A DNA stretch of 63,568 bases, filler included, from Reclinomonas americana ATCC 50394 (taxonomy: Eukaryota): the NCBI GenBank assembly GCA_048213135.1. It is 5 parts of 5 records of this genome, joined end to end, with 100 filler letters (N's around TTAATTAATTAA, not from the genome) between each part and the next. Parts side by side here need not be neighbours in the genome. Positions count along the whole stretch, not along the records: positions 1 to 16,728 come from PS015453.1; positions 16,829 to 31,812 come from PS015454.1; positions 31,913 to 60,528 come from PS015455.1; positions 60,629 to 62,289 come from PS015457.1; 1 more part is not named here. The stretch is one strand, 5' to 3'. Shown here piece by piece: positions 681 through 60,796 of the stretch. Numbering within the stretch: the first letter of the stretch is position 1; each line of letters begins with the position of its first letter. Below the pieces are notes generated by a model. It worked only from the letters and a program-made list of their open reading frames with translations. It had not been told where the DNA came from and did no database searches. Made by a program: the position numbers and the translations under genes.

Positions 681-2325
681 ATGCTGTCAGGGTTGCGTCG
701 ACTCGATGTGTACCCCAAGACGATTGAGGAGTTCAGTGTGCGCACCTACTCGGGTGCCGTGCTGACCATCATCTCGGGCCTCATCATCTTCATCTTGGTC
801 GTGGGCGAGCTGTCGTACTACTTGGCCACGGAGAGGCACGATCGCCTCGATGTGGATACGACACGTGGCGAGCGCCTCACCATTCGTTGCGTCAACGCAC
901 TCGTGCACACACACACACGCACGCACTCACACGCACGCGTGCAGACTTCAACATCACGTTCCCAAGGATCGCCTGCGACAGTTGCGTGTGTGCGCGAGTG
1001 TGACGCTCTCATTTCGCGCCATGGCGTGTCACTCACGCGCCTCTCTCTCTCTCTCTCCCTCCTTCTCTCCTCTGCTGCTGCTGCTGGTGCGTCGCTTCCC
1101 CGCGCACATGCACAGTTTTGACACTGGACGCTGTCGACGTGTCGGGTGAGCAGCAAGTGGCCATTGATCACAATATTATAAAAACGAGGATAGACGAGAA
1201 CGGGAACAAGGTGGTGTCACTCGGCGAGGCCAGTTGCGTCTCCACAGAGAGATGCATCTCAGCATCATGGTGGTGATCATTTGCGATCATCTCAAATTTG
1301 TTTTCTTCGTTTCACTGCAGAACTCGGTGAAGACGAGGCCTCGGTGGAGAAGGCCAAGGCGGCGTTGGCCACCCCCGGCAAGGACTACTGCGGCAGCTGC
1401 TACGGTGCCGAGCAGTCGCCCGGTGATTGCTGCAACACGTTGCGTGCAGGGCGGGAGGCAGCGACTCTACCCCGTCATGTGTTGATGGTCCTTGTCGGTG
1501 TGCAGTTGCGAGGAAGTGCGTGCTGCGTACCAGCGCAATGGCTGGGCCTTCTACCCGAACGAGTCGGTGGAGCAGTGCTTCCGTGAGATTCTCCAGCGTC
1601 GCATGCGTGGCAACATTATCGAGGGCTGCAACATCGACGGTCGTCTGCAAGTCAATCGGCTCGCCGGCAACTTCCACTTGTCGCCCGGGCGCTCGTTCCA
1701 GCTGCTGCATGCGGCGTCGGGTGCCTCGCAGACGAGTGAGCTCGATGTGACGCACACGATTCACACAATGGCGTTTGGTGAGGAGTTCCCCGGGCAGAAG
1801 AATCCTCTCGACAACATTCACCGCCCCACGTCTGGCGGCCTGGAGGTGTTCCAGTACTTTGTGAAGGTGGTGCCGACGTCGTACTCGTCCAGCCGTCGCT
1901 CGTACAAGACGAACCAGTACTCGGTCACCGAGCACGTAAGAAAGCTCGGCGCCAACACGATTGCGCGTGGAATCATGCCGGGAGTTTCGTTTCCTCTCGC
2001 TCTCCCTCTCTCCCTCTGTGTGTGTTGGTTTGGCAGGTTCGTGATTCTCACCTCGTCACGGTCTCCGACACAGGTGTTTTTCATCTACGATCTGTCGCCC
2101 ATCTCGGTGCACATCAAGGAAGACTCGCGCTCTTTCCTGCAGTTCCTCACGTCGGTGTGCGCCGTCGTCGGCGGCGTGATCACCATCTCCTCAATCGTCG
2201 ACAAGCTGCTGTACAACTTGTTGAAGAAGCTGGAGAAGGATCACAACCTCGGCAAGGTGAGCATGCTCACTGCGCGCTGTCTCGTCGATGTCTCCCTCAC
2301 TCATATGCATGCGCAGCCGTCGTGA
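681..2325 (+). CDS. ERGIC3: ER-Golgi intermediate compartment protein 3 / Erv46; exons 681-885, 945-980, 1116-1232, 1321-1438, 1506-1983, 2074-2256, 2317-2325
   Basis: LDVYPKTIEEFSVRT.SGA, LDAVDVSGEQQ, YCGSCYGAE...CCNTCEEVRAAY, EGCNIDGRLQVNRLAGNFHLSPG, FQYFVKVVPT, PGVFFIYDLSPI, FLTSVCAVVGG all join in frame via GT-AG introns. Confidence 0.95.
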
Positions 2326-2523
2326 GCATGTGCTGGTGGGTGATGTCGTGCCGTTCTAGTTGCTGCCAGACCGCAGCGACGAAGACGTGCAAGATGAGTG
2401 GAGGGCGGGGGAATGAGGCTCGGTTGGTTTGCGGCGAATAAAACACAGAAGCGAAAAAAACAACGATGGAGCATTGCATGCGTTGATGATTTATGAGACC
2501 GATACGTGACAGGCAGGCGCCGA

Positions 2524-5500
2524 TCATGCCAGCTCCTGTCGACGGTACTTGTCCTCGGGGAACAGCTGCGCCGAGACCACGCGGCCGGCAAAGAAACGCT
2601 TGTCCAGCCCGTTGATGGCCTGCTGCGCAGCTGTGGGCACACGCAAGACGAAGTGAGGAGGGGGAGAGAGAGTGTGAAGGCGCAGGACGGTTCGGACGCA
2701 ACAAGCTGGGCTGAGGAACACCACAAAGATGTTGACGTAGCCCTCGTCGGCAGCAGCACGCGGCGGTTGCACGTACTTGGTCACCACCTCCTGCTCAGTT
2801 CACACACACTGCTGTGTTAGCAAAACGACGCGAGACGCCCTCACAATCTCCCACCCAACGCAACGACGGCGCCGAATTTCGTGCACTCCTCGCGCACTTC
2901 CTCCTCCAGATTCTCGTCCACCTGATCCGGCGACACCATGTTCTTCAGCACCACCACGCGCGAAGCCTCGCCACGCGAGGCCAGCTGCTGCATGAGTCGC
3001 TGCCGATCGGCTGCCGAGCCAATGCTGACCGATTCCTCGCGCGCAATGCTCTCCACTTGTCCGGTGCCACGTCCAATGCCGCCGAGATTGCCAAACACGG
3101 CGGTCGCCGAGAACACTGATCGCGCATCATGAAAGATGGTGAGTCGTGGAGCAAAGGAGAAACGTGTGTGTGAGGCAAGCAACGCACTGGCCGGGCTGGC
3201 TTCCTGCGTGCCGCCAAGACCACCGTGGCTGGCGGCGGCCGCCGTTGCCATGCTGCCGGTGGCCGGTCCAATCTGCATTGGGAGACAGCATCGGTGATGA
3301 GCGAATTTGGAGTGAACAGGCAATGGGCAAACGTGCTCACCCGCAGCTTGCGGCCAGCCAACTCGAAACTGCGCACGGCGCACACGATCAGCAGGAGTGA
3401 AGAAATCAGCAAATTGTGTGCGACTGCATACCCATCCATGTGCTCCATGGCCATCTTGGCGTCCTCTGGCCTCTCAAACTCAACGAATCCATATCCGCGG
3501 TGCTTGCCGGTCTCTGGGTTCGGCTGCATTGACGAAGCAATGAAAAAATCGAATGAGAACGAGGCGGCAGAAAGAATGTGATCATGAATGGACGTGCGAA
3601 CCAGCAGCTGCACAGAGCGGATCGCTCCAAAACTGGAGAACAGCGACTTGATTTCGTTTTCACCCAGTTCCCACGCAATCGAGCCGACGTAGATGCGAGC
3701 TGCCGGGTTCACCGAGGCCACCAGACCAATCGGAGCACCAGCGATGCCGCCGGTCGCCAGAGCGTTGAAGCGAGCGCCGATGGCGGTCGCAGCCTGTTGC
3801 GCACGTGTCAGGGCGGCCTGCGCAGTGGCCGGGACGTTGAACATTACATTCGGTGTAGCCGACGGCGCCGGCGGCACCGGGTTGTTGGGACGGCCGACTT
3901 TCAGCACTCTGCGTCACGTGTAAGCACCAGATCATGCGAGACATGCGACAACGGCAGCGGCCGCAGCAGCAGCTGCGGCTGTCGACAAGAACAGAACAAA
4001 GAATGCAACCAAAACACCAAGACACAAACAAACAAACAAAACCAAACAAAAACACACAAAGAGCATTCGGTGAGGGAGAGGCCAGCAGCTCACACACATG
4101 CACTGCACTTGTTACCCTTTTGCCAGTGGTCACGCCTGTTATGATTTTTTCAAGCAACACACACGACAGCAACGCAAACACAATCCCAAACAACAGCAGC
4201 AAAAAAAGGGGGGACAGCAAACAGCAGACCGCAACAACAGAAAACAAAACACATCATCCGCGATCAGTTGCTCACGCCCGCACGATAACCATGGCAAGCA
4301 CCCACAGCAGCCCCGTGCACACAAACACGCACAAATACACAGAGAAATGTACTCGCCTGTTGCCGAGAGCGAATCCGTTCATGTACTGCATGGCCATTTG
4401 GGCACTCTGCACACACACACACACACACCGCACGTAAGTGGCCAGAAAATGAAGACACTCACACCGACAACAGCACCCACCTCCGCCGTCACATATTCAA
4501 TAAAGCAGTAGCCCTTGTGGCGATTGGTTTGTGGATCCTGGTTGGTCGGGGAGGGAGTGGATAGTGAGTCGGCATGGCAGGACTTGTTTGTTGCAAGTAC
4601 CATGTGACGCAACAAAGGTGAAGGAAATGTTGGCAATCGGACCAAAGCCCGAGAACGCTGCGCGAATGTCGGCCTCTGTCAACTCGTAGCTAATGGAACC
4701 TGCCAGTGCGTCACCACAGAAGGTAAGCGCACGAGCATGCAAGAGAGAGAGAGAAACAGAGACGGCTGACGCACCGACATAGATGCGCGAGGCCAGTGAG
4801 TTGGTTCGTTGCAGCTGCGCCTGGTAGTGCGCCTGCTGCAGCATTTGCTGCTGCAACAGAACGGCTTGCGCATTCACTGCGCGACGACGTGTGTGAGCGA
4901 GTCGCGAGACAATGACAAAACGAGAGGAGCACGCGACTCACTTGCTGGCGCCGGCGCACGCGTTGCATCACCAGCACCGCGACCCGGCGGCGACACGGAG
5001 CGTGAGCGCGAACGACGAGGCGAGCGTGAACGCGACAACGGAGAGCGCGATCTGCTGGAGCGACGGTGACGCGACGAGCGACTTGAGCGGTGCTTGTCGC
5101 GCTCTCGATGGCGATCACGCTCCCTCTCCCTCTCCCGATCACGATCCCGATCACGGTAGTCACGATCCTTGTCGCCGCGACGACTGCTGCTGCCACTGCT
5201 GCTCACATGCCGCCGACGCGGGCTTCCATCCTCTTCGTCACTGTCATCGGAGCGACGATGACGCGACGAGGAGCCAGTGCGATGTCGACTGTGTCGATGC
5301 CGAATGCGACGCATGTCGTCATCGTAGTCATCTCCAGGAACTGCAATCGGTTCCCCATCATCGTCGTCGTCGGAGCGTGGCGAGCTGCGTCTCCGCCGCT
5401 TCCGATCATCCCGAGAGAGACTGTCGGCGCGCGGCGACCGCGACCGCTTGCGTGACGACGATGTGCGCACTCGAGGCGACTTCTCGTTCTCTCTCACATC

Positions 5501-5575
5501 GTCTGGTGGCGGCACTGCAGGTCCCTCATACACCGGGCCCGCATCATCACCATTGCCGCTGTGTGTCGTCTCCAT
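2524..5575 (-). CDS. PUF60: Poly(U)-binding splicing factor PUF60/half-pint (RS/RD-rich N-terminus, 2 RRM, C-terminal UHM); 11 introns
   Basis: RIYVGSISYELTEADIRAAFSGFGPI...HKGYCFIEY, LGNRVLKVGRPNN, RIYVGSIAWEL...TGKHRGYGFVEF, SRVVVLKNMVSPDQVDENLEEEVREECTKFGAV, FFAGRVVSAQLF; start ATG at 5575 is inferred. Confidence 0.9.
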
Positions 5576-5796
5576 CTCTGTGTGTGTGCGGGAGGGAGAG
5601 TGAGAGTCCAGTGGCAATGGCCCACTCGGGAGAGAAAACAGGCAACTCTTGCACAATGCACTCTCTCACTCTGCCCTCGCACGGAGAAGCACGCAGACAG
5701 ATGGAGACACACGCAGCGTGTACTCACCGTGTTGCAACGCAGTGTTATGACGTCGGCACAGCGCGAGTCGTCATTGTCAATGTCCAGCTACACTCC

Positions 5797-8700
5797 ATGC
5801 AACGTCGTCGACCGCAATCGGCGCCGCAACGGCCAGTGTCGCGCCCACGCAGCGCCACACCGACACACACGATGCCGCCACGCGTACCCTCACCATCGGC
5901 GTCCTCCACGGCAACAACCGCCGCCACCGCCACTCGCTCACACCACCAACAACAACGCCCCGCAACGGCTACCTCTCACTCCACGACGACGACGACGACC
6001 GCTGCCGACGGCGACGTAAGAGTCTCACGGCAGTCGTCCTCCAGCTCGCTTGGGCTGGCACGCGAGGCGGCAGCAGGCAAGGTGCGTCCGGCGTCGACGG
6101 GGCGTCCGCACTCGGCGTTGGGTCTGACACGACCGGCGGGGGCGATTGTCAACTCGTTTGGCTTTGCTGTTGGCGACTATGTGACGTCGTTCCCGCGCGG
6201 AGAGGCCTCGTGTTTGGCACCGGGTGGCGAGCCGCCGCTGAATCGCAGTCAGCAGCACATGTTGCACTCGATGACGAAAAAGTTTGCAGAGCCGATATCT
6301 GTTTCCGTGTGCGTGTGGTGAGTGGCTGACTGGTGTGGTGCGTGAGCAGGCACTACAAGTACTCGGCTCGTGAGTTGGTGGATACGCGACTCAGTGTCGT
6401 CAAGAGGTGCGGAGGAGCAGCGGTTCGAAACGGGGTTGGTGGTTGTTGTTGCTTCTTACCACGGAATGATGCAGTCGGCATGCCACACCGACTCTGGTGG
6501 GCGATCCGACCTCGCCTCGCATTGTGATCAAGCGAGATGTGGAGGTGAGGCTGCCGCAGCACATGCACCGTCGTCATCATCGCTGGTCAGACTCAGTCTG
6601 CAAGTGCAGTTCTTCGACTTGCGACGAGCCATGCGCGCCGCCTCGCAGCAGTACATCAATCCAGACAAGCGTGTGTTGCTGCGTGACTTGTACTTTGACT
6701 CGCTGACCGCCACCTACAAGCGCAAACCCATGGAGCGATTCGGTGCGACGCGGCGTAGTGCGTGTGTGTGTGTTCCATCCCGCCTTCCCCTCACCCTCTT
6801 CTCTGCGCGCAGTGCAAAAGACGGCGGCCAACGAAGCACTGAGTGCGGAGCATGTCAAGGAGCGCGCAAGTCTCGGCAACAGTCTGGGACTGGGTGTTGG
6901 CAGGTCACGCGAGCCGGACGATCTGGTCGACATGGTTCTGCGACAGCGCATGGAGGGTGCCTCGGAGGACGAGAAGAACGCCATTCTGCCGGGCGAGTAC
7001 GTCGTCGGCAGTGTGGAGCAGGTGTACCCGTACCGAGCCGAGGTCGACATCCGAGTGTGGCAGGCCGGCAATCGCATGCTGAAAGACAGACCGATGATTC
7101 ACATGAGTGTGGAGAAACTGCGCAAGATCACTCCGCAGCAGTTTGCACGCTCCTGCCGGCAACGATGGGTGGAACACTTTGCACTCACCGTACAGCAGAA
7201 TCAGGATGGCAGCGACGAGTTGCGTTCCCTCCGCACACGTGCACGTGTGCGGTGTCTGTCACCTCACAGGCTCACACAGTGAGCTCGCCGCCACTGGCGC
7301 ATCACGGCCGTCGCGTCCTCCGTCTGCCAAATCTGCACCAGCCACCGCTCGCCGCCTCCAGCACCTGCGTCGCACCGCCGAGCAGGAGATGGTGTCGACT
7401 GACCGATCGACTGCTGCGCCACCAGCTGGTCCCACGCATCCGTACTTGACACCACGGACTGTGGAGGTGCAATAAGACGCTCATTGTTGGTGCTGATGTT
7501 GATGATAATGAGCAGCTAGCTGATCGTATGAACGTGAGCCGCGCAGTTTCGTGACCGCATCGCCTCGTCGGTGGACTACGATGTGGAGGCCGACATGGCT
7601 CTCATTCACGAGGAGATGGGCTTGAAGCGGCTCGAGTCGGCTCCTGTGCGGCCCACGTCGGCACCGCCCACGGCACTGAGTGCCATGATGCCACCGGCGC
7701 TGCGGTCAGACTCGCCACCATCTCGATCGTTCTTCCTCACGCAGCAAGGTGGAGCAGAGCATTCTGCGCTTCCCGCTGGTGGTGTGCTGGCGTCCAGGAT
7801 TCGAGCCGCAGTGCATGCCGCCACTCGCACCAATGTGGTCTTTGTCGGTGACCGAGGTCTGCATCCCCACAATGACAGCGAGATGAGAAGACTGTGTGTG
7901 TGTCTTTTTGACTTTGATTGTTTGTGTGTGTGTGTGTGTGTGTGTGGCGCAGCGCTTGCACGAGCCAAGGAGAAACGCAAGGAGGACCGAACTCGACGGC
8001 GACTGGAAGAGCTTTCGAGTAAGACAGCCAACAATCAGACGTACAAGCCGACTAAGCAGCTGGTCTCCGTGCAGTCCATGGATCTGACGTCGGTGGCCGC
8101 GGGGCCCGACACCAAGGTATGGAGGGAAGATAATGTGGCGAGCAAGATCACTAGCTGATTATCTTTCTCCCAGTTCAAGCACATGTTGTCGCACTCGCAA
8201 AACACCGACAGGGGCGAGGTCGCGTCCATGTACGTCAACCGCATCTCCACCCTCGAGGCGTGCTATGAAGTGCGTGCATGCATGCGTGCAAGCAACACAT
8301 TATTTACGGCTCACCTGTGCACTCGCAACAGGCAAGTCCGGCTGCGATATTACAGGCGAAGCTCTTCGACAGTGTAGTGGTCGGCAGTGTGGCTGCCGTG
8401 CTGGACCTCAACTTTATGATAATCGATACCGAGTATGGTGTGCATACGAGTGTGACGCACGTGTGTGTTTGGGATCGCTCCTGCTGACAGTATTCTGTGC
8501 GTGCGACAGGCTCGTTGTTGGCTCGTTTCTTTGCGCTGGAGGTACTGCCGGAGGAGCAGCGGCATCACATGGGCTATGTGCAAGTTGCGTGTGCATCTGC
8601 TTGTCATCTTTGCATCACCTCCACTCATCATCTACTGGCGCACGTGCGCAGCGAGTGAACGCCATGGTGTCGCACCTGCAGAATCTCCGATTTCGCACTC

Positions 8701-10654: not shown

Positions 10655-13600
10655 TCAGCGTAGCTCCGCCTGTAGCGACGAGAGACGCTGCAGCACACGG
10701 ATTTCGCGTTCGGCTCTTGTCGATAGTCTGTGGGGACGTGTGAGCGAAAGGAATCGTGTCGACAATGGGAAAGCGCGGCCCTCGCAAACAACAAACCTGT
10801 GCTGCTCATCGTGCATGAGGAGTGCCATGGGGTCACCGTGGTCGACCGCGAGAGCGGCAGCAGCAAACTCCTGTGCCTTGGCCGCGTCTTTTTGCTTCTT
10901 GATATCGGCAAGCGTCATGACTCGAACCTGATGCACTTGTGAGCATGTGACGCACAACCTCTTCCGCCCGTGAATTGCACTCTCACCGATGACTTGTTGC
11001 TGCGCATGCTGTGACTGGAGCTCTTGCGCCCTCCCAGCAGATCGAAACTGGTCTTCCGCTTTGCACCAGATGTGTTGCTGCGATTCGACATGGCCGACTG
11101 CGGCTGCCCGACGCCAGCCAGCGAGGTTGCCGACGGACCCTGCCGCTCCCTCTTGCGCTCTTGATGCGAGAGAGTACGCAACAGATTGCGAACCTCCTGC
11201 GCACGGTGGGTTAATAAGTCGTGACGCACAAGAGACAGCAATCACACACACACACACACGCGCGCAACTCCTGGCAGCGTGAAGCCGAGTGGATCGCGCA
11301 GCGACGGATACACGGCGAGTGCAATGTCCACCAGATCGAACATGACCACTGCCCGTTGGCCTTGCTCTGCGAGAAGCGTTTGAAAGTGAGTGATGTGGAG
11401 TGAATGTGTGCTGTTGCCACAAAGTGCTTGAGTTACCCATGTCTGGCGATGGTGAACGGAATCATGACAAGGCAATCAAAGGCAACAACAAAACAGTGCA
11501 GAGAGATAAAAGGCATAATGTGTGCAGTATTACGGGCGGGGCGGCAAGCGCGTGATGAGCTCCATGAAGCATGTACGAAAAACAGCAATCTCTATTCGAC
11601 TGCCAACACACACACACACGTCACCTTCCATGATCAGTAGTCGATCACCAGTCTGCTGCGCAAATCGTCCACACACAGAAGCAGGGGTGCGGATGGCGGC
11701 CTGTGGGAGCGGACCGGCTAGGAACGAGTCCATAGGTGAGGTGTTTGTCAGCTTGGCCAACATGTCGCCCGAGTCTGCATCATAGATGCGAACTTGGCAC
11801 GTTTCCGACACGGTGGCGCACTGGATACGTACAGATCAGCAACATACAACAGACACGACATCGACTGCAGCGTGTAGACCCACCATGTGGAAGTGAGGCC
11901 ACCACAGCATGTCGGCAATGGATTCCGGGCACTCCTCCAGCTTGACGGAGATCAGATGCTGACCTGCCAGCTGGTGTTCCTGCTTGGGCGAGAAGCGTGA
12001 CAGGGCCATCTGCACGCAAGACCGTCAGAGACACCCTCGACACTGGTTTCCGTCACACCACCACACAGTCACGCAACATCCGCTGGGCGCTCCACACTGC
12101 CGGCGGCTGCCGATGATGCGCCTGGCTTTCGCTGTACACCAGCAACGGACGACTGCGCGTCGGCGACATTATTCACATGCACAATGCCGTCGGCGTCACC
12201 CGACACCACCAAGCGAGATCGCGGTATCGAAACAAATGTGACACTGCGCTTATGTCTGGCGAGTACGTGCTCTTGCGTGGCTGTGAATTACAAAGAGCAT
12301 GAGGGTCGTGAAGCGCGCTCGTTGCGGTGGGTGGCCTCGTGACACAGCACCTGTAGTGAGATTCCAAAGCACGACGCCACCATTGGAGAGGCCGCACACC
12401 AACTGATCGCCCTCAGCACTGATGGCAGACGCCATGATGGGACTCGGGTGCAGCAGTTCACGATTCCCGCGCGGAGCCGTCAGCAGACCTGGAGAAACAC
12501 ACACACACACATGCTCATGAGCCACGACACGCATACACATCAACTGGCCCGTGCACGCAACTGTTTCCGGCTCCACTTCCCGAGGCTCCGCCAGCTGCTC
12601 CGACACCAGCAGGCAACCGACTCGGTGGCAGCGGCACCAAGCAGTGCAGGGTGACAGACAACGAGCCACGGTTGTACACGGCCACATGGCGGGTGACGCG
12701 ATACGGCAGCTGCCACAATGAGACGAAGATGCAGTTTAGCGACGACAAAGCAGATGATCCGTGTGTCTGGTGAATTCACCTCTGCGGCGCGAGATCGGTA
12801 GCCCGGCCCGCTGACAAAGTGGTACATGGGAATCACGCCGGCACCCGAGTCGAACACCGTGGCACCCGGTTCAATGGCAACCATGCCGGGAGGCACAGTG
12901 GGCTCTGGTGGCGCAGCAGCGGCGGCGGATGGTGGTGGACCCTGCGCAGGTGTCGTCAGCTTTACGACATGAATCATACTGCCCCATTCACGAGTCGCCA
13001 CCACTAACCTTGCCACCCTTCGCAGCAGGCGGTGGAGCAGCCGCGGCGGCAGGGGCTGGAANNNNNNNNNNNNNNNNNNNNNNNNNNNNNNNNNNNNNNN
13101 NNNNNNNNNNNNNNNNNNNNNNNNNNNNNNNNNNNNNNNNNNNNNNNNNNNNNNNNNNNNNNNNNNNNNNNNNNNNNNNNNNNNNNNNNNNNNNNNNNNN
13201 NNNNNNNNNNNNNNNNNNNNNNNNNNNNNNNNNNNNNNNNNNNNNNNNNNNNNNNNNNNNNNNNNNNNNNNNNNNNNNNNNNNNNNNNNNNNNNNNNNNN
13301 NNNNNNNNNNNNNNNNNNNNNNNNNNNNNNNNNNNNNNNNNNNNNNNNNNNNNNNNNNNNNNNNNNNNNNNNNNNNNNNNNNNNNNNNNNNNNNNNNNNN
13401 NNNNNNNNNNNNNNNNNNNNNNNNNNNNNNNNNNNNNNNNNNNNNNNNNNNNNNNNNNNNNNNNNNNNNNNNNNNNNNNNNNNNNNNNNNNNNNNNNNNN
13501 NNNNNNNNNNNNNNNNNNNNNNNNNNNNNNNNNNNNNNNNNNNNNNNNNNNNNNNNNNNNNNNNNNNNNNNNNNNNNNNNNNNNNCCGGCGCTGCTGCAG

Positions 13601-17473: not shown

Positions 17474-20400
17474 ATGCAGGGAATGCTGTTGCGTCGATCA
17501 CGCTTGGTGTCGTTTTTCCGGTTAACACAATGATCGCTCACTCTCTCTCTCCCTTCCACAGCGAGACCGCAAGTGTGGGACCGTCGGGTGTCGTTGTTGG
17601 TGCGGATGAGCAGCTGCAGCGCGGTCGCAGCACCGGAAAAAAGGGCACTCGCCGACGACGCAGTGTGGTGTCGGCACCGAGTCGATCGCCGGTGAACGCG
17701 TCGCGTGTGTCCCGGCCGGTGGCGCGCGAGACCGGTCGCAAGAATGCAGCGCCGGGCACACCCAAGGGCCCCGGTAAGCGAAAGCTGCAGAAGACTGTGG
17801 GAGACGCGCCGCAGCTGGAGGGCGAGTTGACGACGATTGAGCTGGACCTGGACGAGGCGCCGGCCAGCGCCGCCACCGACATTGACATGAGTGACTCGTG
17901 CGATGGCCCGCACGGCATCAGTGGAGAGGAGGACAACGTGTCGGAGGTGGCACCGTTGTCGGCCATGCACACGGACTTGGCGTTGCACGCGGTCAACATG
18001 GCGATCTTGGCTCAGCGGCGACCAGTGACACTGGCGGAGCGATCGGCTCTGCGCCTCCGAGCTGGCCTTGAAAAGGTGTGTGTGTTTTAGGAGAGAGGGG
18101 CGAATTGCTGCGCGTGTGGAGAGACTAACCGTGCGGCTTGCAATTCCCTCCATGCAGCGATTTGCCGAAGCCACGGTCCAGTCGCAGAACGTTGAGCCTG
18201 CTGGTGGTGTGGCCGCGTTGCCTGGCGCACAGGCTGATGGCTCTGTGGTTCTCGTTTCGCCACGCAGTCTGCAATCGCCGAGATTGTCGCTTTCGCCGTC
18301 ACGACGAGCGGCGCAGTCCGACAATGCTGTCGCACCTAGTGCCGGTCGCTCGCTTCCAGGTCTGCTGGCGCCCGCGGACTCAACGACGACAACTGCAAGC
18401 AATCTTCCAGCCCCTGTATCCCCACGTCGTGCGCACTCGCCGATGAAGTCCCCTCGGTTGTCGCCGCGCCCGTCAGCAGCTCCCCTGTCGCCTCGTCCAT
18501 CCACCGCCGGCTCTGTTTCGCCGCGTGTTTCACCGCGACCAGTTGTGTCGCCCGGAAGGCGACAGCCGTCGTCCACTGCCGCCATGCCACCCACACCCAT
18601 GCCGCAACTCTTGCAACAGAAGCAGCAGCAACAGCAGCAACAACAACAAGTCAGAAAACCCAAGAGCGCCGAACCGTTGCTTTCACCGCGATCGCACCCG
18701 GTCTCTCCGCGCCCATCGAGTCTGCAAGCACCAGCAGTCGCCAGCAAGTCACCATCACCACCGCCACCACCCCCACCGCCTCCAGTTCCGCGAGAGCAAG
18801 CGGCACAGCGCAGCCGGCCTTCAGTGTCGCCTGGTCGTCACGCACCGTCCGTCTCTCCTCGTCGACAGGCGCCAGCTCCCACTCCTGCACAGCCTCCGGC
18901 GGCGTACTCGCCGAGGCCCTCGTCAGTGTCGCCGCGTCGACAGACGTCAGCCGGCGTGTCGCCCCTGCGCAGCGGTGCCGAGACACGCAAGCCATCACTG
19001 CCGGGCCTCGTGGTCAAGTACGTGGTTCCGATTGCGCCGCTCACGTGTGTGGAGACACCGGCGACGGCCAGAGCAGCAGAGCGATACGGTCGCCCGGTCA
19101 CGCGACCAGGTGGCCAGCACGGCGCAGTTGTCAGCAAGCGCAGCACCACTGCCACCAACATTCCCAGCAGAAGTCGCTCGCAGTCGGCTGGGGCGGCGGC
19201 GGCACGGGCGACCAAGGCAGCCAAGGCCGGCTCTCGTGTTCGTTTCCTGGATCTGGAGCCGGTGCCGGCAATGCCCGACGACGCCACGTCGGCCAACTCA
19301 CCACCGGCCACCCCCAGTGGCGTGTCGGAGGCGCAGACTGCTCCGTCTCGATCGGCTCCACCGAGCCCGCCACCACAAGCCGACAAGAAGGCAGAGGATG
19401 CGTTGGAGAACACAANNNNNNNNNNNNNNNNNNNNACCAAACATGCTGGTGACCGAGTCGCTACCGCTGCCGCTGTTGGGTGACACCGGTCCGGAGCCAC
19501 GCGGCGACGGTGGCGAGGTTGGCATATTCAAAGGTGGCGGTGGGCGCACACCGCGTGGTGACAGTGGTGGCGGTGCTGCCGGCATTTGCGGCTGCGGTGG
19601 CGCCGGCAGCGCTGGCGACGACGAGCCTTGTCGGACACGCGGGGCCGGCAGCGATGGCATGGGCGCCGCTGGTGCCGACATGAGTGGCACCGCGCTGGCC
19701 GAAGGCAGTCGCACCGGCGGCGGTGCCGTAGGCATGCTCTGTCTTGCCGACATGACGGGGATCGACGCCGTGCTGCGCACCACCTGTGGAGGACTGGCTG
19801 TGGCACCGGCCGCAGAGGCGGTCTGCAGCGGCCGCCGACGACCACTGGAGCCACCGTCGTCCTCGCTGCTGCTCGTCTCGGGTTCGGGCGACGGCGAGAG
19901 CGCCAGAGGCATGACGCCGTCGGCACCACGGCGACCGCCCTCCTCGTCGCTGCTGTTGCCGTCGGGAGACTCGCGCCACAGACGCTGCTTGGTGACAGGG
20001 CGGACACCGGTCACCTCGTGCTCCACTTCGTGCTCGATCTCCACGTGACGCCACTTGGGCACCGAGGCATCCACCGACAGGCGTCGGCGCGGTGACGGCA
20101 ACGGACCAGGCGGCAGCGAGGCCACGGCGGCCGGCTTGGAGTTGCGGTCGTCGAGCTCTCTCTGCACCTCCACCAGGAGCACCTTGAGCTCGGCGCGCCG
20201 ACGCGCTTCCGCCTCTCGCTTCCNNNNNNNNNNNNNNNNNNNNCCGCGACCGACTCCACCCGCCATTGGTGGTGGTGCTGGTGGCGCTGTTGGTATCGCC
20301 TCGCGCTTCACGCCACCCAGCGCCCCTGTCAGCTCAGTCGCCTCCATGTCGTCGCTGTCGTCGTCTGCGTCCTCCCCATCGGCATCGCCGTCGCCGCCGC

Positions 20401-23755: not shown

Positions 23756-23815
23756 TCATCATCATCGTCGCCGCTCAATTCAACAATGTAAGATGTTTTT
23801 AAATGTTTACTCGCA

Positions 23816-26648: not shown

Positions 26649-27109
26649 GTGCGGAAGATTATTTTGGCGCCAAACAAGTAGTTCCCGAAATTTGGCCCTA
26701 ACTCGAGAAGGAAGAAGGTCCATATTTGCTCCAGCGGTAGGGCGATTGACGCGCCACAAGAAGATATGCATCACGCGTTGAGAAGGGGCAAAGAAAAAGA
26801 ACTGTGTCACTCGGAAACGAGCGTTTCGATTCATTCCAAAATCGATTTGAACTTGGAGGTAAATATGGACCCACCCTTTGCGTCTCAGAAGAGGCATGAG
26901 GAGCAAACTCATCGAGCGCGTCTTGTTCATCGACGTTTCCCCTCCCAGTAGCTGATTAGAGAAGAGGAAACAAACAAACGTAGGCCACATCATGCAAGTT
27001 GTACGAACATGACCACACCACAGATTTTCTGACGAATCATTTTACTTGCATACGGCATCCACACCACCACTCTCTGTCTCTCTATCTGCTGTCTATCTAT
27101 TATGCGTAC

Positions 27110-34147: not shown

Positions 34148-34182
<35 letters not shown>

Positions 34183-34834
34183 CGAGAGAGACGACGAGGA
34201 CGACGACGAGGAGAGGAGAGAGANNNNNNNNNNNNNNNNNNNNNNNNNNNNNNNNNNNNNNNNNNNNNNNNNNNNNNNNNNNNNNNNNNNNNNNNNNNNN
34301 NNNNNNNNNNNNNNNNNNNNNNNNNNNNNNNNNNNNNNNNNNNNNNNNNNNNNNNNNNNNNNNNNNNNNNNNNNNNNNNNNNNNNNNNNNNNNNNNNNNN
34401 NNNNNNNNNNNNNNNNNNNNNNNNNNNNNNNNNNNNNNNNNNNNNNNNNNNNNNNNNNNNNNNNNNNNNNNNNNNNNNNNNNNNNNNNNNNNNNNNNNNN
34501 NNNNNNNNNNNNNNNNNNNNNNNNNNNNNNNNNNNNNNNNNNNNNNNNNNNNNNNNNNNNNNNNNNNNNNNNNNNNNNNNNNNNNNNNNNNNNNNNNNNN
34601 NNNNNNNNNNNNNNNNNNNNNNNNNNNNNNNNNNNNNNNNNNNNNNNNNNNNNNNNNNNNNNNNNNNNNNNNNNNNNNNNNNNNNNNNNNNNNNNNNNNN
34701 NNNNNNNNNNNNNNNNNNNNNNNNNNNNNNNNNNNNNNNNNNNNNNNNACGACACTACGACGCGCGACACACACCTCTCTCTCCTCCTCCTCTCCTCCTC
34801 CTCCTCTTTCTCTCCTCTCTCTCTCTCTCTCTCT

Positions 34835-37900: not shown

Positions 37901-38765
37901 TCTCCTCTCCCCTTACTCCCTCTTCGCTTCATCTCTTTGCCCCATCCCACAGACCTCGACCATTCCACCCACTGGTGGTCGCCGTCTCCTTCGTCACCAT
38001 GTTCCGCTTCGGTCTCGGCGACGGTTGCGTGCATTTCCCCCGTTGTTCGCTTCCCTTTTTTCCACCGCATTCAACTCGCAGCACTTGGCAGGCCTGCTGG
38101 ACTTGGTCTTCACCGTGTTCTACGTCGTCAAATTGGTGCGAAGCAAACACCTCTCGCTCGCGCTCTTCTCTCTCGCTAACTTCTCTCTCTCTCTCTCTCC
38201 TGTAGTTCGACGAAGGCTGCCACGGCCTCGGCATTCCCATGTATGGCCTCGTGTGCCGCGTCTACTGCGAAGGCGTGTACGACTTGACGCACATGGGCCA
38301 CGGTGCGTCTTCCTCTCCTCCTCCTCCCTTCAGTTTAATCACCGCCTAACCCTCGCGATTGCCACCACTCCAGCCAATCAAATGAAGGCCGCCCGCAGCC
38401 TGGTACCGACCGGCCAATACTGCCACCTGGTAGTGGGCGTGCTCTCCGACGACGACGCCACGCGCATCAAGCAGCGGCCCGTCGTGCTGCCGCTGGAGCA
38501 ACGAGTGGAGAACGTGCGCGCTTTCCGCTTCGCCGACGAAGTGATCCCCGCCGTGCCCAGCGAGGTGCTCTCAGCCGAGTTCCTCGACACGCACCACATC
38601 GACATGGTCGTGCACTCTCCCGAGTACGGCCAAGCACGGTACGCAGTGGCGCACGAGCGCGGCCTTGCGAAATTGCTGCCGGAAACCGACGGTATCTCCA
38701 CCACTGCCATTATCGATCTCGTGCGCGGTCATCCCGAAGTCCTGCGCCTCAGGAGCACCACCTAA
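34998..38765 (+). CDS. Fusion of CDP-alcohol (choline/ethanolamine-type) phosphotransferase and C-terminal HxGH cytidylyltransferase, paralogue 1
   Basis: MRLLSPTDLERLQRWSYSVDDRS..., [39 protein letters not shown]; then RVYCEGVYDLTHMGH, LVVGVLSD, EQRVENVRAFRFADEVI, ETDGISTT; all joined in one frame. Confidence 0.85.
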
Positions 38766-42458: not shown

Positions 42459-43087
42459 ATTCCCTGTTTCACTTATCACCACCCGTTCGCTGTTTGGTTG
42501 CCTTCCTCCCCCTCCCCCTCCCCCTTCTCACCCCTTCGCCTTCTTACCCCTTCCACAGAGGACGCCTCTCACTACAAACGCCCCCCTGTACTGAACTGCG
42601 AGCAACGCTGCAACAACGTGCGCTCGTTCCGCTTTGTCGACGAAGTCGTGCCAAACGCACCATGCTTTGGCCTCACCGACGACTTCTTGGACGAGCACCA
42701 GATCCACCTGGTGGCGCACTCGATCGAGTACGAGAAGCCCGACGACATTTACTATGCCGTGCCGCGTCGTCGTGGAATGACTCGAGTTGCGTGCGTGTGA
42801 AGAAACACTCTCTCTCACTCTCTCTCTCTCGCTCTCGATTTCTCCGTGTCTTTCTTTCCCAGCTTTCTCCTCGTCTTCCCCTCTTTCCCCAATTTTCCTC
42901 TTTCTCCTCTGCTGTCTTCCTTTCCTACTCTTCTCCTCTGTCTCATTCTCGTTTCTGTGTGCAGATTTTGCCGCGCACCGAGGGCATCAGCACCAGCGCA
43001 ATTATCGATCTTGTGCGCAATCGACCAGACCTCATTCAGCGTCCGACGACGACGGCAGCTGCTGCGGCAGCCGACGTCAAGAAGTGA
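39724..43087 (+). CDS. Fusion of CDP-alcohol phosphotransferase-like domain and C-terminal HxGH cytidylyltransferase, paralogue 2
   Basis: PPNIITLAG, FQMMEALDGRHARRVRQASSLGAIFDHSCS; then RVYVDGVYDITHYGH, HYKRPPVL..EQR..VRSFRFVDEVVPNAP, ILPRTEGISTS; collinear with paralogue 1. Confidence 0.85.
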
Positions 43088-46231: not shown

Positions 46232-46279
<48 letters not shown>

Positions 46280-48260: not shown

Positions 48261-48313
<53 letters not shown>

Positions 48314-51553: not shown

Positions 51554-52025
51554 TGCATGGCTAGCGCTGCACGACATGATCAATCCACACAAACATCTCT
51601 TCATCGTCTCACGGAGCGGAACAGCTCGGGAATGTATTCCCGCGGCATTGTCTTGGCAGGCATTGTCGGCGGCGGCNNNNNNNNNNNNNNNNNNNNNNNN
51701 NNNNNNNNNNNNNNNNNNNNNNNNNNNNNNNNNNNNNNNNNNNNNNNNNNNNNNNNNNNNNNNNNNNNNNNNNNNNNNNNNNNNNNNNNNNNNNNNNNNN
51801 NNNNNNNNNNNNNNNNNNNNNNNNNNNNNNNNNNNNNNNNNNNNNNNNNNNNNNNNNNNNNNNNNNNNNNNNNNNNNNNNNNNNNNNNNNNNNNNNNNNN
51901 NNNNNNNNNNNNNNNNNNNNNNNNNNNNNNNNNNNNNNNNNNNNNNNNNNNNNNNNNNNNNNNNNNNNNNNNNNNNNNGGTGATCCCTGCGCACCAAGAA
52001 GAATGAGCGCTCATCACCAAGGCAC

Positions 52026-55000
52026 TTACCCCCCATCAAAGATTGCACGCCCACGTACCCTTGGAATACCACCACCATTGCTGCTGCTGCTGTAGCTGCT
52101 CGACGATTGCGGCGACCACGTCCATGGCGACGACAGGCGCAGAGTAGGCGACGATGACAGCGTGCCGGAAGAAGTGGTGTGCGACGGAACTCGTGGCGAC
52201 GTCACTGTCGCTGGGCGCTGGCTCGAGAGCCCCACAGGAGCGCTACGCAGAATCGGCGAGCGGTAGTCGGCGCGCATCAGCTCCACGTGTGACTGCGGGT
52301 GCATCTCGCGTGCCACCAGCGGCCGGTAGGATTCACGGATAAACGAGGCCTCTTCCAGACCGGCGGCCGCCGTCGGAGTCACCGAGACTGGCGAGAACAG
52401 TGGCACCAAAGTGGTCGGCTCCACAGGCAGNNNNNNNNNNNNNNNNNNNNNNNNNNNNNNNNNNNNNNNNNNNNNNNNNNNNNNNNNNNNNNNNNNNNNN
52501 NNNNNNNNNNNNNNNNNNNNNNNNNNNNNNNNNNNNNNNNNNNNNNNNNNNNNNNNNNNNNNNNNNNNNNNNNNNNNNNNNNNNNNNNNNNNNNNNNNNN
52601 NNNNNNNNNNNNNNNNNNNNNNNNNNNNNNNNNNNNNNNNNNNNNNNNNNNNNNNNNNNNNNNNNNNNNNNNNNNNNNNNNNNNNNNNNNNNNNNNNNNN
52701 NNNNNNNNNNNNNNNNNNNNNNNNNNNNNNNNNNNNNNNNNNNNNNNNNNNNNNNNNNNNNNNNNNNNNNNNNNNNNNNNNNNNNNNNNNNNNNNNNNNN
52801 NNNNNNNNNNNNNNNNNNNNNNNNNNNNNNNNNNNNNNNNNNNNNNNNNNNNNNNNNNNNNNNNNNNNNNNNNNNNNNNNNNNNNNNNNNNNNNNNNNNN
52901 NNNNNNNNNNNNNNNNNNNNNNNNNNNNNNNNNNNNNNNNNNNNNNNNNNNNNNNNNNNNNNNNNNNNNNNNNNNNNNNNNNNNNNNNNNNNNNNNNNNN
53001 NNNNNNNNNNNNNNNNNNNNCACAGTCTGAATGGACAGCGGCGGAGACCGCTGCAGTTGCTGCTGTTGCGGCGGCGAGGTCTCGGCAGGCGGCGACGCGC
53101 GTGTGCTGCGGCAAGCAGCCTGATGCAACCGTACGAGTTGCAGACGGCGTAGCACCGGCGACCGGTCGGCTGTGGATGGCGGCACGAGCGGGTACCGCGA
53201 ACCAGGCGGCGACTCCACCGCACTCGAAGCCGCACTGATCGGCAACGCCGTGTGTGTGTGCGACGACAACCCCATGAGTGCGACCGACGACTCGGGCGAC
53301 AGACGGACGCTTCCGACTGGCGGCGGGGTAATGTCGACTGCAGCCGCAGCTGTTCCACAAGAAAAAGTGGGTGAGTCACACGAGGTGGCGTGGAAAGTCA
53401 CGAACGAAGAATTAATCGACACACCTCGTGGCATCTTCATGCGTTGCAGTGGCGTCTCCGACCACGCGGGAACTACAGCGAAGCAAACAAAGAGTCAGAA
53501 AATGGTGCCCGGTGACTTTCCATTTTGCCTACTCCCGTGCAGTTACGTACCACCACCAGCGTGCATGTCAGAGCCGGCAAATCGCTCGCCCTCAGTGGCC
53601 AGCATGTGATGACGATGTTGTCCCTCAGTCGCTGTCCACCGCGCAAATGTGACGTCTTCCGTGGACATGGTGGCATGTCGTCGCACTGGAACAGCAACGT
53701 CAGTGAGCGATACATCTCATGAGAGAGAGTACACACACACACACATACCGTCGGGAGAGTGAGCGGCTTGCAACGTGGACGACACGGGTGTCGCGGGATC
53801 GGCAGGCAGCGATGCCACTTGCGGAGTGTCGTCTCGCACGCGGCGGAGCACGGAGCGCATGGGCGATACACCTCCACGAGCACCAACCGATTCAGGAATG
53901 AGCGGGGGTGCCAGCAGCGGTTCGGTTGTCGGCGGCGAGCGGTGCGCCAGTGGTGATGCACGTCGCCAGGCTGTGCGCGCAAGAGTGAGACACAGAAGGC
54001 ATCCACGACCAACCAATCTCCCGTCCCTCACGCAACAAGTGAGCGACGCACTGGCTGTACGACCGTCGTCGGTGGGTGGCGAGTGCTGCGGCGGCGACAA
54101 GTCATCTGCATGGATCGGTACCGCTGATCTTGGCGGCGACGTGTAGCCGGCGGGCACCACCACTTCTTCTTCGCCCTCCTCCTCCTGCTGCACGCTTTCG
54201 TAAACCACCGGCATGCTCTCCACACCAGACGACCCGGCAGGTCGCGCAGAAGCCGCACGGACAGCATCGTGCGACACCACAGTGGTCGGCACTGCACGCA
54301 GAATAAAATGAACAACAAAAATCCGTCCGCACGCACACAAACACACATTGGTTTTGCTCACCGTTTCCTCGCACGCCTACAGCCGGCGGCGATGGTGGTC
54401 GCGGCACATCCAGCGCGCTGGTAACTGCGATATATAATGACGCAAAAATAAAGCGAGACAGGTTGAGTGCGCACGCACAGCACGCGTCATTGGCACCCGC
54501 AAACGAACCGGACGGCGAGCTGGGCGTGTCGGTCGCCGCACTGAAGCCTGCACGCGGGACCGCAGGCGGCGAATCCAGCACCTCCTCTGCAACAAGGCCG
54601 ATAGCCTCCGCTAGCGGCTTCGAGGCTGCACGGGAGCATGAGAACACTTTTGAGTCACAAGCAGACACAGACAAACTCAACAGCGCAAGCTTCCACGACG
54701 GCGACGAGAGCCGTCCGGTGGCGATGCGGCAAGTGGTGCCAGACCAAGTTCGGTGGTGAGCTGGGCGGCCAGGGCGCCAAAATACGACACACTGCCGCGG
54801 CGACCTGTCGACGAATCGCCGCCCTCGGCGGGAATGGAGGAGGCGCCAGAATCCGGTGACTGTACCGTTGCAAGGCCGAGAGGTGAGCGGAATGGTGGAA
54901 CACTGGAGTCGTCGCCGGCCATTGCCATCGGAACAGCAGGCGCAGGCGCAGGCGCAGCAGTTGCACTGATGGGCTGGTTGAGAGAAGGCGCACTGTCGCC

Positions 55001-58000: not shown

Positions 58001-60527
58001 TGCAGCGTTCCAAGTCATGCGACGACCGACGCTAGTCGCACTCCCCATCCGGGTTCCACCGGTGAGGAGACGAGAGGGCGTCTTGAAGCTGTTGCTGCGT
58101 CCGGGACTCGACGACGTCGGGCTGACGCCGGAGCCGAGAAGCTGTGAGAGAGCACCAAACGCCAACGCCGACGCAGTTGGTGGGGAGCGCGATAGAAACA
58201 CGTCGTCGATGCCAATCATGGCTGGTACAGCCACTGCATCCTCCTCGTGCAGCTCCGTCTCCCACAGAAAATCTACTCAGCAGCACGGATCGATGTGAGA
58301 CATGTGACGACCACAGGCAGAAACTGCACGAAAAAACACGCACCGGGCGACGCGTCGACGGGTGACACAGACATGGGTGTCCGCGGAGAGCTTTGCACGC
58401 TGACAATGCTCCCCATGCACTCCATCGACTCGCCCTCGAATGATGCCGTGGTCGACGTTCCACTGCTCGACAGCGCCACATCGTCGCGATCTACGACCAC
58501 CGCATCTCCATCACCGACAGCCGTTGCGCCAGCAGCACCAGCGGCAGCAGTGGCAGAGGCCATTGATGGTGTGTGCAGCAGAACCTCGGCTGCGCAACAC
58601 ACACAAAAACGTGAGCCTGGGGGATTGCGCGTGGCGGAAAAAGTGAAATGAGAACACGAATTACCGCTGCTTGCTCGTCGTGGTGAGGAGTGCGACGCGC
58701 TGGTGCCCCAATCGTCGGTCGAGGACATATCCAGCGGCAACGGAAGCACATTGTGGATGGCATAGACGGCCCGCGACTCCTTGGTGAAGGGCACAGCCAG
58801 GCTGGAGCCGCGCTTGCGCGTGGTGTCAGAGGGCGACAATGGTGCAGACTGCTGCATGGTGAGCGGGATGGGTGTCGGCAGAGGTGTCGCTGAGCTTGTC
58901 TCCGACGACGCCACCTCTGCGACGAATGCGAGATTAGTGACATGGCAACTGCTTCGTGCGGTCAGTCTACACACACCAGAATTCGACATTGCTGACGATG
59001 ACGGCGACGGTGGCTCTCGTGGCGGTGCCAAAGGCGTCTGCTGTCCGGCAAAGGGCGACGAAATCTGGCGGAAAGCCACATCATCAAGTTCTGCTTCCCG
59101 TTCCAGACGGCGCCAGAGAGCCTCTGTTGGATCCAAGTCTTCTTCATCGTCGTCGTCATCATCAGCATCAGCCGCCCGCACGTCCACGTGCATGGCGTCG
59201 CTGGTCGGCACTCCAGTTGTAGACATCGCCAACTCCTCGCCAACTGAACCGACTGCGTTGTCGCCAGTGGCCGCAGCAAAAGGAATGGTCGCATGATCAC
59301 CAAAGAATGCAGACGATCCGGTAACTGAGTCGTCGTCGTCGGGCGCAGAGACTGCTTTGAAGGCCTGTAGAAATCGCGTAAGTGCCTGTGCTTATGACTA
59401 CAAATGTGATTTTCACGCAACAGCGGGTTTCCNNNNNNNNNNNNNNNNNNNNNNNNNNNNNNNNNNNNNNNNNNNNNNNNNNNNNNNNNNNNNNNNNNNN
59501 NNNNNNNNNNNNNNNNNNNNNNNNNNNNNNNNNNNNNNNNNNNNNNNNNNNNNNNNNNNNNNNNNNNNNNNNNNNNNNNNNNNNNNNNNNNNNNNNNNNN
59601 NNNNNNNNNNNNNNNNNNNNNNNNNNNNNNNNNNNNNNNNNNNNNNNNNNNNNNNNNNNNNNNNNNNNNNNNNNNNNNNNNNNNNNNNNNNNNNNNNNNN
59701 NNNNNNNNNNNNNNNNNNNNNNNNNNNNNNNNNNNNNNNNNNNNNNNNNNNNNNNNNNNNNNNNNNNNNNNNNNNNNNNNNNNNNNNNNNNNNNNNNNNN
59801 NNNNNNNNNNNNNNNNNNNNNNNNNNNNNNNNNNNNNNNNNNNNNNNNNNNNNNNNNNNNNNNNNNNNNNNNNNNNNNNNNNNNNNNNNNNNNNNNNNNN
59901 NNNNNNNNNNNNNNNNNNNNNNNNGGGGAACTGGCGGGGCGCCGGGTGACGAAGGCAGCGGCGGTGGCGGCGACGACGACTCGGTGGGAGGAGCAGCAAA
60001 GTACACGGGTTTCGGTGGTGGTGGCGGGCCGCGTCGAGGAGGTAGTGGTGGCGGCGTCGATGCTGTGGACAGCGGCGACATGACCACCACTGGCGACTCG
60101 TCGAGAGAGGCCCGTCTCGGCTCCGAATGCCACTCCGTGCGACCATAGCGATGAACAGACAGGCCAGGTGGTGTCATTGGCGGAAGGACTGGCAACGCAC
60201 TCGAGTCCTCACTGAGCACGCTGGTGCCGTCGTGCGACAGAGGCGACTGCACCGCACTGATGAACAATGCAGGCGCTTCAGCGGACAACTCCACCGCATC
60301 CAGGCCGCCCTTCTGCTGCGATGCTCGATTTCGACCAACGGAGCCCAAGACCGGTGACGAGTGCAGAAGCGCAGAAGCACCGCTCGCTGCTGCAGCCGTC
60401 CGCGGGGTACTCTGCGCAGGAGAATCGCTGCCGTGGCGAGCGACAGGCGGCAGCACCGTCGCAGGCAGCGAAAGTGGCGGCGGTGAAAAGTCGAGCAATG
60501 AAGCGGGACGCCCAGCGACTGTGCCAG
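52026..60527 (-). CDS. Very large low-complexity Ser/Pro/Asp/Glu-rich protein(s); ends undefined because of gaps
   Basis: Long - strand frames (55553-58234, 54677-55468, 58273-59232, 59925-60527) of similar composition separated by short introns or gaps. Confidence 0.55.
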
Positions 60528-60796
60528 CNNNNNNNNNNNNNNNNNNNNNNNNNNNNNNNNNNNNNNNNNNNNTTAATTAATTAANNNNNNNNNNNNNNNN
60601 NNNNNNNNNNNNNNNNNNNNNNNNNNNNGCAAGGGAAGGAACAGGGGGAGGGAGAAGGGGGAATGAACAGGGGGAAGGAAAAGGGGGAAGGAGAAGGGGG
60701 AGAGAAGGGGGAATGAGAAGGGGGAATGAGAAGGGGGAAGGAGAACGTCAACACTGCGAATAGCTTAACAAGCAGCACCACAAGATGCAACGCAAC

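Follow-up and report, generated by a model that had tools for sequence, protein, structure and literature searches.

The stretch of DNA considered here is a 63.6-kilobase (kb) window, by which we mean the whole stretch analysed, from the genome of Reclinomonas americana ATCC 50394, and all class counts given below are limited to it. The window is gene-dense, with about 59% G+C and 5,698 masked N over 24 runs, and introns of 55-135 nucleotides (nt) are numerous across it. Genes that could be matched to known proteins include those for ERGIC3, PUF60, TMEM260, a cytidylyltransferase, TRIP13 and a WD40 protein. With the donors placed by the GT-AG rule, the reading frame and protein homology taken together, the window is read as holding two kinds of GT-AG intron, which differ only at the donor. 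One kind has an ordinary donor, in which the last exon base (position -1) is mostly G and the consensus is G/GTGCGT, the slash marking the splice junction. The other opens with the heptamer GTTGCGT or a close variant of it and is called shifted here, as the word sits one base deeper in the intron.

Both kinds are taken to be spliceosomal GT-AG introns, since their removal restores a frame that matches the homologues, as it does for nine shifted-type and 18 ordinary introns. These 27 form the homology set, whose ordinary members include one supported by frame only (38136) and two in which homology at the junction is absent or weak (4941 and 24244); the TRIP13 intron at 62580..62647 stands outside the contingency counts. 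The intron lists for the ERGIC3, PUF60 and TMEM260 genes are complete and were made regardless of the exon -1 base, and some members of the ordinary set were first named by an earlier reading of the sequence alone (the sequence-only reading). Adding 12 shifted-type introns with frame support, that is, open frames joined over an intron of 56-77 nt with a CAG end, gives a curated set of 39, of which 21 are shifted-type and 18 ordinary. Two other placements of the shifted boundary were rejected: NG/TTGCGT...CAGN leaves no constant intron ends and at 981 would swap a conserved hydrophobic residue (I; L in homologues) for S, and the internal GT at +6 has no consensus as a donor and breaks the validated frames.

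Exact copies of GTTGCGT number 27 on both strands, against 12.57 +/- 3.52 expected from shuffles, and this number was reached in 0 of 100 shuffles. The base before them is A in 7, C in 6, T in 11 and G in 3 (at 692, 23950 and 38024). The copies at 692 and 23950 are not donors (Table 1), and therefore 25 sites are left, among which 38024 is the only one preceded by G. The sequence-only reading had likewise counted 25 shifted donors, 24 of them with A, C or T at exon -1 and only 38024 with G, and direct reading of the bases bears it out on both points. Its assignment of all 25 sites as donors stood in part. Eight are confirmed by homology (886, 981, 1233, 1439, 2702, 2864, 4613 and 24442), and eleven more are frame-supported, with introns of 57-77 nt and a CAG end (7219, 8584, 12077, 12561, 17488, 28918, 38024, 42786, 47385, 54036 and 59421); intron support was also sought for 11182, 34945, 35232, 49560, 56610 and 60796, and none was found for these six. 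The site at 56610, to judge by what lies opposite it, is probably not a donor.

The relation between the two donor words is apparent when they are counted position by position. In the 21 shifted-type donors, positions +1 to +7 hold G in 21, T in 21, T in 21, G in 20, C in 20, G in 21 and T in 21, and in the 18 ordinary donors, positions -1 to +6 hold G in 16, G in 18, T in 17, G in 14, C in 10, G in 17 and T in 9. When the shifted word is moved by one base, it agrees with the ordinary consensus GGTGCGT at every slot but the second, which holds T. The shifted word is near-perfect always, but an ordinary donor may differ from its consensus at two or three positions (GTATGC, GTTCGC, GTGACC). The ordinary consensus is itself G/GTGCGT rather than GTAAGT, with G at +3 (14/18) and C at +4 (10/18), a preference that predicts either a non-standard partner at those slots or a strong G+C drift.

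Away from the donor, the two classes are alike. Median intron length is 69 nt in the shifted class and 70.5 nt in the ordinary, and interior composition is the same. The acceptor is CAG in 21/21 shifted introns and in 23/23 of the validated introns listed, and two further introns (38136-38205 and 62580-62647) use TAG. Of 23 validated introns of both classes, 19 have a CTNAY branch motif (in most cases CTCAC) at a distance of 12-37 nt from the acceptor. All-against-all blastn of the 21 shifted intron interiors returned only CT-rich matches of 10-17 nt. A rule based on signals only (donor word, CTNAY, first CAG) was specific for the shifted word, with 22 matches against 4.2 in shuffles, and was rejected as unspecific for ordinary donors, with 40 matches against 28. 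Somewhere between one in four and one in three of the placed introns belong to the shifted class, the counts being 21/39 in the curated set and 23/94 among predictions.

The contingency of the -1 base against donor class, which had been proposed as a check of the sequence-only reading, was run on the homology-validated introns and upheld the contrast, with G at -1 in 0/9 shifted against 16/18 ordinary introns (Fisher p = 1.2e-5). With the frame-supported shifted donors included, the counts are 1/21 and 16/18 (p = 6e-8). The comparison was also made with a gene finder that is blind to the -1 position, in which the donor score uses intron bases only, a CAG acceptor is required and the coding score is codon usage. 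In the setting used it recovered 18/23 validated introns and predicted 94 introns after strand resolution, and G at -1 was found in 1/23 shifted and 35/71 other donors (p = 5e-5). Two other penalty settings left the direction unchanged (p = 3e-4 and 6e-4). As false predictions have background composition, they can only dilute a contrast between the classes. Versions with uniform or self-trained splice signals were dropped for over-prediction (235 introns), and a Pfam search of 354 of the 471 stop-free open reading frames (ORFs) found few domains and was dropped for exon mapping.

What the contrast means depends on the background. In the window, G precedes 22% of all GT and 16-17% of all GTT, and the bases before any GTT are T at 0.37, C at 0.30, A at 0.17 and G at 0.17. 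For ordinary donors, G in 16/18 against a background of 0.22-0.30 gives P < 1e-6. Since G stands before GTT in only 16% of cases, the shifted class is unselected at -1 and not clearly depleted of G. The safe statement is thus that selection for G at -1 is not seen in shifted donors and is very strong in ordinary ones; the claim that G is almost never at -1 in the one class and usual in the other keeps its class contrast and loses any depletion below the GTT background.

The pattern inferred by the sequence-only reading is present, in a sharper form than was put forward there, and in the three fully listed genes the shifted donor and a final exon G exclude each other. Exons that end in G are followed by an ordinary donor in 12/12 cases, and exons with another end by a shifted donor in 9/11, the other two being 3187 (GTGCGT) and 4941 (GTGAGT), in which the intron side is perfect, whereas donors preceded by G tolerate GTATGC, GTTCGC and GTGACC. 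Donors with T at +3 that follow a G keep G at +5 and the canonical register (3601, GTTCGC; 28070, GTTTGC; 8766, 55561 and 10796, GTTTGT). The 15 ordinary donors named by the sequence-only reading have the bases it gave, 13 with G at -1 and 3187 and 4941 with A, and 11 of the 15 belong to the homology set, those outside it being 35689, 36524, 39819 and 40424.

Table 1. GTTGCGT copies and introns placed in the window (a slash marks the exon-intron junction).
Coordinates	Strand	Class	Donor or word	Length (nt)	Gene or context	Support and remarks
178..243	+	ordinary	G/GTGACC		WD40 (STRAP-like) gene	homology
692..698	+	not a donor	GTTGCGT after G		ERGIC3 N-terminus, LSGLRRLD	coding; homologue alignment
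886..944	+	shifted	C/GTTGCGT	59	ERGIC3	homologue alignment on both sides
981..1115	+	shifted	A/GTTGCGT	135	ERGIC3	homology
1233..1320	+	shifted	A/GTTGCGT	88	ERGIC3	homology
1439..1505	+	shifted	C/GTTGCGT	67	ERGIC3, CCNT^CEEV	homology
1984..2073	+	shifted variant	A/GTTTCGT	90	ERGIC3	in frame, stop-free; 30 residues missing from homologues
2257..2316	+	ordinary	G/GTGAGC		ERGIC3, last intron	homology
2631..2702	-	shifted	T/GTTGCGT		PUF60 homologue	homology
2791..2864	-	shifted	C/GTTGCGT		PUF60 homologue	homology
3116..3187	-	ordinary, exception without G	A/GTGCGT		PUF60 homologue	homology
3273..3340	-	ordinary	G/GTGAGC		PUF60 homologue	homology
3369..3431	-	ordinary	G/GTATGC			in frame; missing from PUF60 homologues
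3524..3601	-	ordinary	G/GTTCGC		PUF60 homologue	homology; in frame; T at +3, G at +5
3909..4356	-	GC-AG	G/GCGAGT	448	PUF60 homologue	required to join GFALGN to RVLKVGRPNN
4407..4480	-	ordinary	G/GTGGGT		PUF60 homologue	homology
4538..4613	-	shifted	T/GTTGCGT		PUF60 RRM1	homology
4700..4774	-	ordinary	G/GTGCGT		PUF60 homologue, splits RIYVG^SISYE	homology
4877..4941	-	ordinary, exception without G	A/GTGAGT		PUF60 homologue	joins two frames; low-complexity part without homology
7219..7279	+	shifted	A/GTTGCGT			frame only
8584..8651	+	shifted	A/GTTGCGT			frame
12010..12077	-	shifted	T/GTTGCGT			frame; read-through hits a stop after 2 codons
12489..12561	-	shifted	A/GTTGCGT			frame
17488..17561	+	shifted	T/GTTGCGT			frame
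23944..23950	-	not a donor	GTTGCGT after G			frame open 398 codons upstream; credible acceptor absent
24152..24244	-	ordinary	G/GTGAGC		TMEM260-like	weak homology
24374..24442	-	shifted	T/GTTGCGT		TMEM260-like	homology
24678..24736	-	ordinary	G/GTGCGT		TMEM260-like	homology
25584..25652	-	ordinary	G/GTACGT		TMEM260-like	in frame; 23 residues missing from homologues
25810..25864	-	ordinary	G/GTACGC		TMEM260-like	homology
26362..26434	-	ordinary	G/GTGCGT		TMEM260-like	homology; alternative donor 26416 likewise after G
28846..28918	-	shifted	C/GTTGCGT			frame
38024..38091	+	shifted, sole exception with G	G/GTTGCGT	68		likely donor; fits ATG at 37999
38136..38205	+	ordinary	G/GTGCGA			frame only; TAG acceptor
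38303..38373	+	ordinary	G/GTGCGT		cytidylyltransferase, splits HMGH^ANQ	homology
42786..42862	+	shifted	A/GTTGCGT			frame; read-through hits a stop after 4 codons
47385..47450	+	shifted	T/GTTGCGT			frame
53971..54036	-	shifted	T/GTTGCGT			frame
54626..54681	-	shifted variant	T/GTTGAGT			frame; read-through hits a stop after 1 codon
56610..56616	+	counted as donor by the sequence-only reading	GTTGCGT		antisense to 907-codon ORF	probably not a donor
59365..59421	-	shifted	T/GTTGCGT			frame; upstream exon N-masked
62580..62647	+	ordinary	G/GTGAGC		TRIP13	outside the contingency counts; TAG acceptor
62801..62857	+	ordinary	G/GTGCGC		TRIP13, VCVLI^DEVESL	homology

The gene for ERGIC3 (+ strand, 681-2325) has six introns, four with GTTGCGT, one with GTTTCGT and one with G/GTGAGC; its product is closest to a protein from a read assembly (57% identity), followed by that of Andalucia godoyi (46%). 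A GTAAGA at 1937 on the + strand, which has the look of a textbook donor, was rejected as coding, its EHVRKL being aligned to the homologues. The PUF60 homologue (- strand, ~2520-5600) has eleven introns, three with GTTGCGT, seven with ordinary GT donors and one of the GC-AG type, which gene finders limited to GT cannot place. In the TMEM260-like gene (- strand, ~23800-26700), a single intron begins with GTTGCGT and five are ordinary. Five stop-free introns have lengths that are multiples of three (1984-2073 on the + strand; 3369-3431, 3524-3601, 4700-4774 and 25584-25652 on the - strand), so that plain ORF reading would give 21-30 extra residues, and their intron status comes from the homologues. 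In TRIP13, two equivalent donors 9 nt apart on the + strand, at 63145 and 63154, G/GTGTGTCA and T/GTGTGTTT, have a common acceptor and possibly represent a tandem donor, of which homology favours neither.

Between 32000 and 44000, the + strand has a strong excess of C and T, with a GC skew down to -0.33, and long runs of CT dinucleotides occur there in both introns and intergenic sequence. It was these runs that misled the self-trained codon models, which were derailed by CT-repeat ORFs and set aside. Two long stretches able to form hairpins (33740-33865 and 34060-34200) match many plant and animal microRNA (miRNA) models on both strands, far under the gathering score (best 40.5 bits vs 96), and are probably palindromic low-complexity repeats.

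How might one spliceosome use both words? The account that we favour, and to which we give about an even chance of being correct, is that one and the same reader of 5' splice sites, the 5' end of the small nuclear RNA (snRNA) U1, binds both forms, doing so at GTTGCGT in a register shifted by one base (+1). Ordinary donors fit a degenerate seven-slot word, G/GT(G/A)(C/A)G(T/C), whose slot 1 is the last exon base, and shifted donors, /GTTGCGT, have the strictest form of the same word one base deeper in the intron. The G at +1 of the intron would then fill the slot of the exon -1 G, and the U at +2 that of the usual G at +1, with the reader bound at the same place relative to UGCGU in both classes. 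Cleavage in the shifted donors would fall before the only GU, and in general before a GU in slots 1-3. With G+1 in the slot of exon -1, the last exon base would lie outside the pairing and be unconstrained, any base being allowed there, whereas ordinary donors would depend on it. We infer that U1 is the reader and that C9 is the partner slot of G+1; exon -1 itself appears not to serve for the C9 pair in shifted donors, where G is found in 0/9 or 1/21 cases vs 16/18 in ordinary donors.

A number of points weigh against this account. With the standard U1 5' end, as printed in PMC4856993 (AUACUUACCUG), the pairing energy of GUUGCGU lies between 0 and -1.4 kcal/mol for the shifted register and is 0 for the canonical and bulged ones, and NNH/GUUGCGU in the canonical register likewise gives 0 kcal/mol, indicating poor complementarity. 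The pairing energies suggested as a way to choose between registers therefore single out none, being about 0 kcal/mol throughout, and standard U1 explains none of them; the shifted word fully matches only the window's own ordinary consensus GGTGCGT. The C at +5, found in 20/21 shifted donors, would lie opposite a pseudouridine of standard U1 and make no pair. By nearest-neighbour logic, H/GUGCGU, with six contiguous pairs, should rank above the shifted form; at non-G ends, however, it is the rarer of the two. The exon bases at -1 and -2 of shifted donors lack the clear A or C preference that pairing with U10 and G11 would lead one to expect. Against the GTT background, a single G among 21-27 sites falls short of significance by itself (P ~0.05-0.13), and would reach it against codon-position frequencies of 0.22-0.37. 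Finally, six of the 25 sites are those without intron support, the sample is the single 63.6-kb window, and the junctions are placed by the GT-AG rule, frame and homology. Given pairing energies near zero and the unpairable C+5, either U1 is altered at the slots that face ordinary +3 and +4, or recognition is dominated by protein, or a separate snRNA is involved.

The last of these possibilities leads to a different explanation, in which the RNA that recognizes the heptamer is an altered or dedicated snRNA, either U1 with a changed 5' end or a second, U1-like RNA that pairs perfectly with GUUGCGU. We regard it as unlikely, even though 20-21 of 21 donors agree at each of the seven intron positions, among them the C+5 that standard U1 cannot pair with, the energy with standard U1 is about 0 kcal/mol in every register, the missing exon consensus resembles that of introns read from the intron side alone, and the ordinary donors, with their G+3 (14/18) and C+4 (10/18), call for a partner with C and G there. 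The prediction would be a U1 5' end that reads ...ACGCA(C/A)C... where the standard one has ACUUACC, and the shifted class would be a recognition channel that ignores the exon, a proposal of which we are likewise doubtful. One RNA could read both words, as the UGCGU core is common to them, and branch motif, acceptor, length and composition are alike in the two classes. An Rfam search of the window gave 0 matches at gathering thresholds and, at E <= 1, only weak matches of miRNA models on the two hairpins and none to an snRNA, so that no snRNA gene in the window speaks directly for this explanation.

A bulged register would keep G+1 and U+2 in their normal slots, with one U (+2 or +3) bulged, GCGU one step late and the -1 slot available. 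Such a register at +2/+3 has been validated for a few dozen human sites, according to PMC4856993, and the extra T does resemble an insertion into GTGCGT. Here, however, it is quite improbable. Pairs kept at -1, +1 and +2 around one bulged U would leave the -1 slot usable and G enriched in it, as in ordinary donors (16/18), and no such enrichment is seen (1/21). Moreover, H/GTTGCGT, if bulged, would have the pairs of H/GTGCGT plus a bulge penalty and hence be the weaker, yet it is the more common of the two at non-G ends (9/11). Relaxed G/GTTNNG donors were also sought, and none was found except 38024 and a doubtful prediction at 37800. The preference in the sequence-only reading for a shift over a simple bulge is thus sustained by the one-base offset of the consensus and the lack of -1 G enrichment, and falls short in that standard U1 pairs stably in no register. 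The third alternative, that the GTTGCGT introns are a younger cohort from one intron-creating process, whose insertion preference excluded G by chance so that -1 merely reflects local composition, is highly improbable. The -1 composition of the shifted donors (T 9, A 7, C 4 and G 1 of 21) is near the background before GTT, and the class is abundant here vs 2 shifted-type among 22 predicted introns at the related metagenomic TRIP13 loci described below. Nonetheless, the introns share only CT-rich runs of 10-17 nt besides the heptamer, and seven invariant bases over some 20 otherwise unrelated introns require ongoing selection, so that the heptamer must be a working signal. Nor does a cohort account for a word that repeats the ordinary consensus one base further in.

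An invariant shifted word at a large share of introns, strictly alternating with the -1 G, would amount to a natural experiment in which the choice of cleavage site by U1, and afterwards by U6, could be followed. It is unlikely, though conceivable, that 5' splice-site recognition has been rebuilt in this organism, the U1 5' end being changed to match UGCGU, or a second U1-like snRNA serving GUUGCGU. In that case, between one in four and one in three introns would be defined from the intron side alone, one base away from the ordinary register, and the major spliceosome would hold a second donor code that is independent of the exon. Shifted registers are known as rare human exceptions, and the pattern in the window yields a prediction on the U1 5' end that can be checked. 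On the practical side, gene finders trained on G/GTRAGT would overlook shifted introns or put them in the wrong place, and several of these introns keep the frame and contain no stop.

Related sequences were sought for comparison. Among 80 metagenomic TRIP13 loci, none had the GTTGCGT density of the window, and an exact 36-mer of the window was matched in neither viral_contigs nor genome_contigs. Two of the loci, L077 and L078, from one sample, have intron-rich TRIP13 genes and share with the window the intron position VCVLI^DEVESL (62801 in the window, ~2870 in L077). Their predicted donors are mostly ordinary, with 2 shifted-type among 22 introns from a gene finder on little sequence, and the T/GTTGCGT at 3096 in L078 is the only shifted-type donor found in the TRIP13 gene itself of either locus. 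Among the matches listed from open-access text, none described a genome in which GTTGCGT donors form an abundant class, and the strings GTTGCGT and GUUGCGU occurred there only in primers, aptamers and similar. The literature found on the shifted register concerns human and tunicate only, and the tunicate paper raises it as a mere possibility.

The shifted class can be set beside several systems that are better known. An origin as introner-like mobile introns was rejected, as there is no similarity over whole elements (the blastn matches of the 21 interiors being confined to CT-rich runs). U12-type introns have the 5' word /RTATCCTT and a branch motif TCCTTRAC close to the 3' end. They are alike in having a long, near-invariant 5' word and no exon consensus, and a U12-type identity was rejected, the donor GTTGCGT not being /RTATCCTT and the branch-like CTNAY being the same as in the ordinary introns. 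U2-type donors are characterized by a trade-off in strength between the exon side (-1 G) and the intron side (+5 G and beyond). The ordinary donors of the window behave in this way, 3187 and 4941 having a perfect intron side without the -1 G and G-preceded donors being laxer; the shifted class differs in that it would compensate by a change of register and a fixed heptamer, not by gradual strengthening. Closest are the shifted and the bulge +2/+3 registers of human U1, and Roca and Krainer are said to have described, in 2009, such a (+1) register of U1 at atypical human 5' splice sites. In PMC4856993, the shifted register is experimentally established in human cells, with a model site ACA/GUCAAGUAUA that has A at -1, and is a noncanonical, minority register, and the bulge +2/+3 register is rare, 68 human sites being predicted and 54 kept in a revised list. 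The bulged sites, as presented there, share with the window one extra U right after GU relative to the consensus and differ in that the -1 slot is used, whereas in the window the -1 G is missing where the extra T is present. The human shifted sites have GU at +1/+2, the rest of the consensus word one base further in, cleavage at the GU and, at the model site, no -1 G, all as in the window. Unlike them, the shifted class here takes up between about one in four and one in three of the placed introns, and its word is an invariant GUUGCGU without stable pairing to standard U1.

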